From assembly GCF_963921235.1 (NCBI RefSeq), contig NC_086097.1, forward strand, positions 81,222,001-81,286,000: DNA of 64,000 nucleotides, given 5' to 3'. The notes beneath the pieces were generated by a model that had not been told where the DNA came from, did no database searches, and saw only the letters and a program-made list of their open reading frames with translations. Position numbers and translations under genes: made by a program. Of this stretch, positions 53,255-54,893 are shown piece by piece; position 1 is the first letter of the stretch; every line of letters begins with the position of its first letter. This DNA is from Mobula hypostoma (Eukaryota).

Positions 53255-54893
53255 CAGTTGCAGTCAGAAGTTTACATATACCTTAACCAAATACATTTAA
53301 ACACAGTTTTTTCACAATTCCTGTCATTTAATCCTGGAAAACATTCCCTGTCTTAGGTCAGTTAGGATCACTACTTTATTTTAAGAATGTGAAATGTCAG
53401 AATAATAGTAGAGAGAATGATTTATTTCACCTTTTATTTCTTTCATCACTTTCTCAGTGGGTCATAAGTTTACATACACTTTGTTAGTATTTGGTAGCAT
53501 TGCCTTTAAATTGCTTAACTTGGGTCAAACGTTTTGGATAGCCTTCCACAAGCTTCTCACAGTAAGTTGCTGGAATTTTGTTCCATTCCTCCAGACAGAA
53601 CTGGTGTAACTGAGTCAGGTTTGTAGGCCTCCTCGCTCGCACATGCTTTTTCAGTTCTGCCCACAGATTTTCTATCAGATTGAGGTCAAGGCTTTGTGAT
53701 TGCCACTCCAATACCTTGACTTTGTTGTCCTTAAGCAACTGTGCCACAACTTTGGAGGTATGCTTGGGGTCATTGTCCATTTGGAAGACCCATTTGCGAC
53801 CCAGCTTTAACTTCCTGGCTGATGTCTTGAGATGTTGCTTCTATATATCCACATAATTTTGCTTCCTCATGATGCCATCTATTTTGTGAAGTGCACCAGT
53901 CCCTCCTGCAGCAAAGCACCCCCACAACATGATGCTGCCACCTTCATGCTTCACGGTTGGGATGGTGTTCTTCGGCTTGCAAGCCTCACCCTTTTTCCTC
54001 CAAACGTAACGATGGTCATTATGGCCAAACAGTTCAATTTTTGTTTCATCAGACCAGAAGACATTTCTCCAAAAAGTAAGATCTTTGTCCCCACGTGCAC
54101 TTGCAAACTATAGTCTGGCTTTTTATGGCGGTTTTGGAGCAGTGGTTTCTTCCTTGCTGAGCAGCCTTTTAGGTTATGTCGATATAGAACTTGTTTTACT
54201 GTAGATATAGATACTTGTCTACCTGTTTCCTCCAGCATCTTCACAAGGTCCTTTGCTGTTGTTCTGGGATTGATTTGCATTTTTCGCGCCAAAGTACGTT
54301 CATCTCTAGGAGACAGAATGCGTCTCCTTCCTGAGCGATATGATGGCTGCATGGTCCCATGGTGTTTATACTTGCATACTATTGTTTGTACAGATGAACG
54401 TGGTACCTTCAGGCATTTGGTAATTGCTCCCAAGGATGAACCAGACTTGACATCATTTTCTAAGCTCAGTCCGATAGAAAATTTGTGGGCAGAACTGAAA
54501 AAGCGTATGCGAGCAAGGAGGCCTACAAACCTGACTCAGTTACACCAGTTCTGTCTGGAGGAATGGAACAAAATTCCAGCAACTTACTGTGAGAAGCTTG
54601 TGGAAGGCTACCCAAAACACTTGACCGAAGTTGAACAATTTAAAGGCAATGCTACCAAATACTAACAAAGTGTATGTAAACTTATGACTCACCGGGAAAG
54701 TGATGAAAGAAATAAAAGCTGAAATAAATCATTCTCTCTACTATTATTCTGATATTTCACATTCTTAAAATAAAGTAGTGATCCTAACTGACCTAAGACC
54801 GGGAATGTTTTCTGGGATTAAATGTCAGGAATTGTGAAAAACGGAGTTTAAATGTATTTGGCTAAGGTGTATGTAAACTTCTGACGTCAACTG
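53255..54893 (-). mobile_element. Sleeping Beauty-like Tc1 derivative, complete (1639 bp), two right-type IR/DR ends, TA TSD
   Basis: TA|CAGTTGCAGTCAGAAGTTTACATA...TATGTAAACTTCTGACGTCAACTG|TA; arms 53255-53689 and 54460-54893 are inverted copies. Confidence 0.95.
53484..54449 (-). pseudogene. Tc1/SB-type DDE transposase lacking its N-terminal start
   Basis: KSGSSLGAI..., [61 protein letters not shown]; frameshift and stop near 54110-54125. Confidence 0.93.

Follow-up and report, generated by a model that had tools for sequence, protein, structure and literature searches.

Nucleotides 53255-54893 of the window (the whole 64-kb stretch of DNA that was analysed) hold a Sleeping Beauty (SB)-type Tc1 element of 1639 bp. 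Its borders, TA followed by CAGTTG at 53253-53255 and CAACTG followed by TA at 54893-54895, agree with the original prediction of a TA-flanked element of this length. The element starts and finishes with inverted arms of 434 bp each (53255-53688 and 54460-54893), which BLAST aligned at 93.5% identity over 430 bp, far above chance; arms of about 435 bp had been anticipated. The features of this element, hereafter copy 1, and of a second copy found in the window are as follows.

53221-53252 (no strand): dispersed AT-rich host repeat hit by copy 1; it resumes at 54896 (BLAST within the window)
53253-53254 (no strand): TA target duplication, left in the window (border sequence; the host repeat is unbroken elsewhere)
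53255-53483 (minus strand): native right IR/DR with two DRs (cores at 53270 and 53468), no half-DR and three AATAAA; 91.8% identical to the normal right IR
53484-54449 (minus strand): SB-type transposase remnant, codon 20 to stop, no start codon (SB100X match, DDE_3); it lacks 1 bp near 54124 and is interrupted by a stop at 53841-53843
54450-54459 (minus strand): 10-bp filler, flanked by CAG and CA microhomologies and equal to normal 5' UTR positions 264-273 (match to normal elements)
54460-54665 (plus strand): inverted duplicate of the last ~68 transposase codons and the stop (translation, BLAST)
54666-54893 (plus strand): inverted duplicate right IR/DR in the left end's place, no half-DR, three AATAAA
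54894-54895 (no strand): TA target duplication, right in the window (border sequence)
28485-29402 (minus strand): copy 2, with the same junction and without the native right end, 93.6% identical to copy 1 over 920 bp; filler at 28961-28970, duplicated arm at 28971-29402, TA at 29403-29404

The host repeat interrupted by copy 1 is, we presume, the 3' tail of a LINE. Since four other copies of this repeat in the window (6996-7062, 14983-15071, 18619-18691 and 39307-39389) run unbroken across the site, the TA duplication of copy 1 is the mark of a clean insertion. Elsewhere in the window, a 366-codon open frame at 47514-48611 (minus strand) carries a GDSL esterase domain (PF13472, E 1e-13), which we take to be part of a LINE ORF1, and reverse-transcriptase fragments followed by PF09004 mark retrotransposon remnants at 63183-63998 and 39873-40716 (both minus strand).

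The transposase remnant of copy 1 is broken. Its last 118 residues match SB100X (PDB 5CR4; E 2.3e-63, 118/118 aa), and a Pfam profile scan placed a DDE_3 domain in it. Codons 1 to 19 and the promoter region are lost, just 10 bp of the 5' UTR are kept, the intact 340-aa frame is absent and no in-frame ATG was found upstream of the junction; with the frameshift and the stop added to these losses, copy 1 cannot produce transposase. Note that the traits of the SB clade are otherwise present, namely the TA target duplication, ends of ~230 bp with two direct repeats each and an SB-type transposase, and that a motif scan found all four full DR cores retained. With the distinct left IR/half-DR and the features of autonomy absent, copy 1 is a derivative of the SB clade and not a canonical member.

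Two right ends and a templated junction

Two metagenome loci (L003 and L004), found by a 23-base pattern adjoining the junction, served as normal references, and both have normal left ends. They are ordinary 1639-bp SB-type elements that share 99.1% identity and possess a left IR and a 5' UTR; their start codon lies at position 389. The natural-looking full-length element in L003 (L003:1357-2995) is bordered by TA at either end and has a transposase frame that is open over 340 codons, and the frame of L004 carries a frameshift; the family is young and possibly active. Positions 445-1639 of copy 1 are 93.6-93.7% identical to both references at the DNA level, and the transposase remnant is 90% identical to the L003 frame over 212 aa.

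Over their first 230 bp, both ends of copy 1 are 91.8-93.0% identical to the right IR of these references, versus 63.9-67.1% to the left IR; for the duplicated end (54666-54893) the values are 93.0% and 66.7-67.1%, respectively. A half-DR-like motif lies at position 154 in both normal left ends and in none of the three window ends, a scan by which we also rejected the idea that a new half-DR had arisen in a right end. The left-specific part of the normal element has no match in the 64-kb window beyond the weak likeness of left to right, the two ends of the normal elements being 68.6% alike over ~230 bp and 89-93% alike over the first 27 bp. Copy 1 has two right ends, as had been proposed, and neither of them is the family's normal left IR. 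The further claim that the left end, the 5' UTR and the transposase start had all been replaced holds for the left end and the transposase start, but not for the whole UTR, of which the filler is a remnant.

This filler, ACATCATTTT, occupies 54450-54459 between the inverted arm and the retained coding part. Its counterpart, positions 264-273 of the normal 5' UTR, occurs nowhere else in either of the two normal elements, and together with the flanking CAG and CA it is matched exactly by copy 2 over 15 bp. Since the inverted arm likewise finishes in CAG and the retained coding part likewise opens with CA, each joint is one of microhomology. An untemplated filler was rejected: a random 10-mer was found in the element in 0.4% of 20,000 trials, and five flanking bases match too. 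Because the filler is a UTR remnant joined through CAG and CA, at least two template switches or deletions are required to make the junction.

The rearrangement added 171 bp at one joint and removed 171 bp at the second, turning 444 bp into 434+10 bp. The original prediction that length was preserved is thus correct to the base against both normal 1639-bp elements, a comparison in which the left part of the local parent may differ from the references by a base or two. A template switch within an IR-paired panhandle, suggested earlier as the cause, would keep the register over ~230 bp only, where the left-right homology ends, and not at 434-445, where the two internal junctions lie. Since IR/DR elements are reported in PMC5224488 not to yield MITEs, and may need a minimal or optimal distance between their ends, selection for near-full spacing is plausible, though identity to the single base would not follow from it.

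The two arms of copy 1 have one change in common in the inner DR, at arm position 211 (53465 and 54683), which is absent from copy 2 and the references, and both also differ at positions 7-9 of the outer repeat. These shared changes could reflect arm-to-arm conversion, or symmetric end damage as in Tdr1.

Further copies with the same junction

Copy 2 carries the same junction and lies in the same host motif as copy 1, at a different TA, in the opposite orientation relative to the motif and with flanks that are unrelated beyond it. Around 53221-53254 and 29403-29438 the motif shows that both copies were inserted at neighbouring TAs; this AT-rich host-repeat motif may be a preferred SB target in this genome. 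The native side of copy 2 is cut, and there it abuts a fragment of a dispersed repeat, with a short TGCAA common to the two (28398-28489).

A third locus came from the protein searches. When the chimeric plus-strand frame was compared with 1.84 billion representative proteins, the junction was present in one of the best 150 of 2694 matches, XP_062905703.1, a RefSeq model from Mobula hypostoma named 'tetratricopeptide repeat protein 33 isoform X3' (TTC33). Its ~95 terminal residues, the modelled last exon, consist of the transposase frame read antisense, followed without loss of frame by the transposase C-terminus, and include the same junction peptide. Because nothing in the window matches the TPR part, and both window copies differ from the transposon part, this protein represents a third locus. 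Its arm carries the residues that mark the window's subfamily versus L003. The TTC33 copy and copy 1 were judged not to be orthologous, since the two residues that they share lie at CpG codons and the other residues and the end differ. From this gene model, isoform X3 is a candidate exonisation or gene-trap event, and host transcription appears to cross the junction copy antisense to the transposase.

In the remaining protein searches the junction was seen in 0 of 95 matches to the chimeric frames, all 95 of which carry the normal 5' side, in 0 of 65 further candidates, and, with XP_062905703.1 in the query, in one of the best 120 of 513 matches, which was XP_062905703.1 itself and so not independent. 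In total, one of the 285 proteins gathered from all protein searches has the junction. The few named matches in these searches are salmonid. Searches of plasmids and viral contigs gave no match to the element, and prokaryotic genome contigs gave two weak matches only (36% over 100 aa and 46% over 24 aa). A predicted SB-type protein of Prochilodus magdalenae, KAI4903070.1, has its N-terminal domain joined directly to the last 40 residues, which points either to a copy with an internal deletion or to a splice made by the gene model. Among 24 runs listed by shared words, 22 held part of 53700-58200 and four held at least half of its words; shares went down to 0.08, over eight organism codes, in a count based on words and not on read alignment.

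The three arms in the window are equidistant from one another (6.5-6.7%), with 15, 14 and 16 private changes, and have 18 changes in common versus L003 and L004. Changes common to the two duplicated arms alone number 0 of ~434 sites, which implies that the arms of the founder were identical and that the rearrangement preceded the insertions. The middle parts of the copies differ by 5.5%, close to the value for the arms. Judged by these distances, the rearrangement is of the same age as the insertions.

With the same junction in copy 1, copy 2 and TTC33, the element is present at more than one locus and duplication of a single locus, which would have undone the original proposal of a family, is ruled out. 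Note that the complete pair of outer ends is observed in copy 1 only, copy 2 being without the native end and the third case being a protein model. The copies have the traits of an end-replacement lineage, that is, an end replaced by an inverted copy and, in at least two copies, shared breakpoints with different flanks. They form a non-autonomous subfamily, most likely mobilised in trans. One unselected extra copy in 64 kb corresponds to 0.4-87 copies per Mb (95%) if an even spread is assumed, an estimate that local hopping could inflate; local jumps are described as making up 30-80% of chromosomal SB transpositions.

Origin, spread and possible effects

Taken together, these results make it very likely that a non-autonomous right-right SB subfamily was born in one founder by repair and spread to new TAs through the transposase of its relatives. 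In a founder within a young family, repair would have overwritten the left end with a copy of the right end and the adjoining sequence, 434 bp; it would have re-entered the 5' UTR through the CAG microhomology and then, through the CA microhomology, jumped from UTR position 273 to position 445, in one multi-switch event or in two steps. This would have cost the element its left IR, including the half-DR enhancer, along with the start codon and most of the UTR, but the spacing of 1639 bp and all four sites for transposase binding would have been kept. Because these sites and the normal spacing are retained, transposase from relatives could move copy 1, and intact relatives would paste the right-right form into new TA sites. 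The right-type ends, the junction at three loci, the old arms and the four DR cores all argue for such a subfamily; that there are only three loci, that the two window copies lie 25 kb apart and could represent a local hop, and that such a subfamily does not account for the exact match in length argue against it.

The same final sequence could have come about by a different route, in which two young copies lying head to head were fused by two microhomology deletions and then spread in the manner just described. The CAG and CA microhomologies fit such deletions, and local hopping makes neighbouring copies common. The donors, however, would have to be identical, since no site of ~434 separates duplicated from native arms, and the equal length would have to be coincidental or filtered by transposition; by an after-the-fact estimate, zero net length change has about one chance in several hundred under independent deletions. 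This fusion, which concerns the route of origin only and overlaps with a subfamily spread in trans, is possible, and we put it forward tentatively. A right-right donor that overwrote the left ends of normal copies already inserted, by ectopic gene conversion, would leave TA duplications that stem from normal transposition, and would find homology in the 1.2-kb coding part on one side and in the 27-bp outer repeat on the other. These 27 bp, 89-93% alike between left and right, are short for repeated homologous recombination, although equal length would ease conversion. The star-like arms also speak against it, with the middle parts differing about as much as the arms, and one late donor predicts duplicated arms that are closer to each other than to the native arm, which is not so. 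Conversion among copies has been proposed for Galileo (PMC3573991); here we consider it very unlikely.

That the copies result from segmental duplication, a one-off rearrangement in place, autointegration or an assembly artefact is scarcely credible. Both window copies do lie inside the same short host motif, as a duplication would have it, but at different TAs, in opposite orientations and with no likeness of the flanks beyond the motif; arms that are 6.7% apart are neither collapsed nor recent duplicates, and the TTC33 junction is at a third locus. Autointegration needs a transposon end or a TA at the junction (PMC3952818), and neither is there: the hallmark of an SB autointegration product, an end at an internal TA, is absent, and the internal joints are the CAG and CA microhomologies.

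As had been predicted, the element would form long dsRNA if transcribed, 53400-54750 being modelled as one long stem (-693 kcal/mol, a raw energy with no shuffle baseline at this length). In both directions AATAAA lies at positions 1456-1515, that is, late in the second arm, so a read-through transcript would contain the first arm in full and at least ~250 nt of the second. With these two-way poly(A) signals the element could end host transcripts in either orientation, an effect to which the TTC33 gene model points. Read-through from either side might also give a ~250-430-bp hairpin with transposase sequence, from which small RNAs would silence the family in the manner of maize Mu killer (PMC3440606). 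Beside this precedent, the long predicted stem, the AATAAA placed only late in the second arm and the RefSeq model that reads a TTC33 junction copy antisense to the transposase favour such a silencer, which is compatible with a right-right subfamily and does not exclude it. Normal copies, however, also pair weakly via their ends, and no host exon was recognised at the copy 1 locus by Pfam in 146 of 181 long non-repeat frames. We regard the silencing role as unlikely.

The local ancestor is about 96.5% identical to L003/L004 (32 shared changes in ~910 bp) and the antisense frame has matches of 88-92% to salmonid proteins, values that fit horizontal transfer. It is a doubtful extension of this idea that the right-right form, after entry from bony fish, outran its left-right parent to become the main SB-type element of devil-ray genomes, with thousands of copies, its hairpin and two-way poly(A) signals making it a self-spreading silencer or gene trap that helped to end the invasion. 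If the right-right form were dominant, the net length change of zero would suggest that repair had followed a register-keeping route; if only few copies exist, the element is a curiosity.

SB end asymmetry and comparison with known systems

Right-right SB constructs, in work attributed to Izsvak 2002, reportedly transpose poorly. The accessible text of PMC4505599 cites Izsvak 2002 solely for a preference for one end. That the left IR carries an enhancer, as claimed for SB at the outset, is confirmed by the half-DR described there (PMC5224488, PMC7827188), which the window ends do not have. The related claim that a right-right family is unexpected is tempered by published end-replacement lineages and by the description of the half-DR as an enhancer that is not essential (PMC7827188). 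In a solo-end assay, which is bimolecular and does not represent a right-right element, SB without the left IR gave zero transposition, versus 0.56% without the right IR (PMC3952818), and duplication of the left TIR in pT3 is reported to raise SB efficiency two- to three-fold (PMC8151067). By analogy, the half-DR of the left end, the gain from a doubled left end and the failure of the solo right end would oppose mobility of the right-right form, and the non-essential nature of the half-DR would favour it.

SB is one of the main non-viral gene vectors. The asymmetry of its ends (the half-DR enhancer and assembly from the left inner repeat) is known from cell culture, and a natural lineage with two right ends would test the importance of the left end in a real germ line. 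The literature that we covered, mostly papers open without subscription and outside Repbase and Dfam, described no natural right-right SB element, nor a natural IR/DR element with its enhancer-less end doubled at full length and at several loci. The element is a right-right, non-autonomous SB derivative that has spread to several loci, with a templated junction; end-replacement events as such are already known.

The window element has the TA duplication, the IR/DR ends, the DD34E transposase and the total length of 1639 in common with SB100X (5CR4), L003 and L004. Unlike them, it has no left IR, half-DR or start codon, and it has arms of 434 bp. Jia et al. 2022 (PMC9777934), in the text available, list the SB group for 107 ray-finned fishes and a single mollusc, cartilaginous fishes being absent from the list; they give SB TIRs of up to 415 bp, and their set might include a similar SB element with long arms. 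Symmetric-end substrates have been built before, as pT3 (PMC8151067) and as the LL and RR constructs of Mos1 and Mboumar-9 (PMC4505599); pT3 doubles the left TIR, whereas the natural element in the window doubles the right end.

Like Mu killer of maize, the window element is an inverted duplication that includes transposase sequence and has the same terminal repeat twice. Mu killer is a single locus for which siRNA and silencing have been shown (PMC3440606), whereas the right-right SB occupies several loci. In Galileo of Drosophila mojavensis, TIRs have likewise been lengthened by the recruitment of internal sequence, there from either side, and repair of one end from the other is the mechanism given by Marzo et al. 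2013 (PMC3573991). Unlike the window element, Galileo belongs to the P superfamily, has near-identical TIRs and, as that source describes it, has no known end asymmetry and no transposase sequence in those copies whose TIRs are longest.

A likeness in the replacement of an end is seen with mariner MITEs of Drosophila such as Dromar7, 11, 28 and 36, in which one end has been replaced by the inverted copy of the other, with long TIRs and amplification of the founder. Seven amplified mariner lineages, reported by Wallau et al. 2014 (PMC4161770), have the 5' part in place of the 3' part and, as a result, long TIRs; the authors call the origin of the replacement elusive. All seven are 5'-for-3', derive from short-TIR elements and are under 1 kb in that account. 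The right-right SB element runs in the opposite direction, 3'-for-5', in an IR/DR element at its full length of 1639 bp, and its templated UTR filler records the repair path at base resolution.
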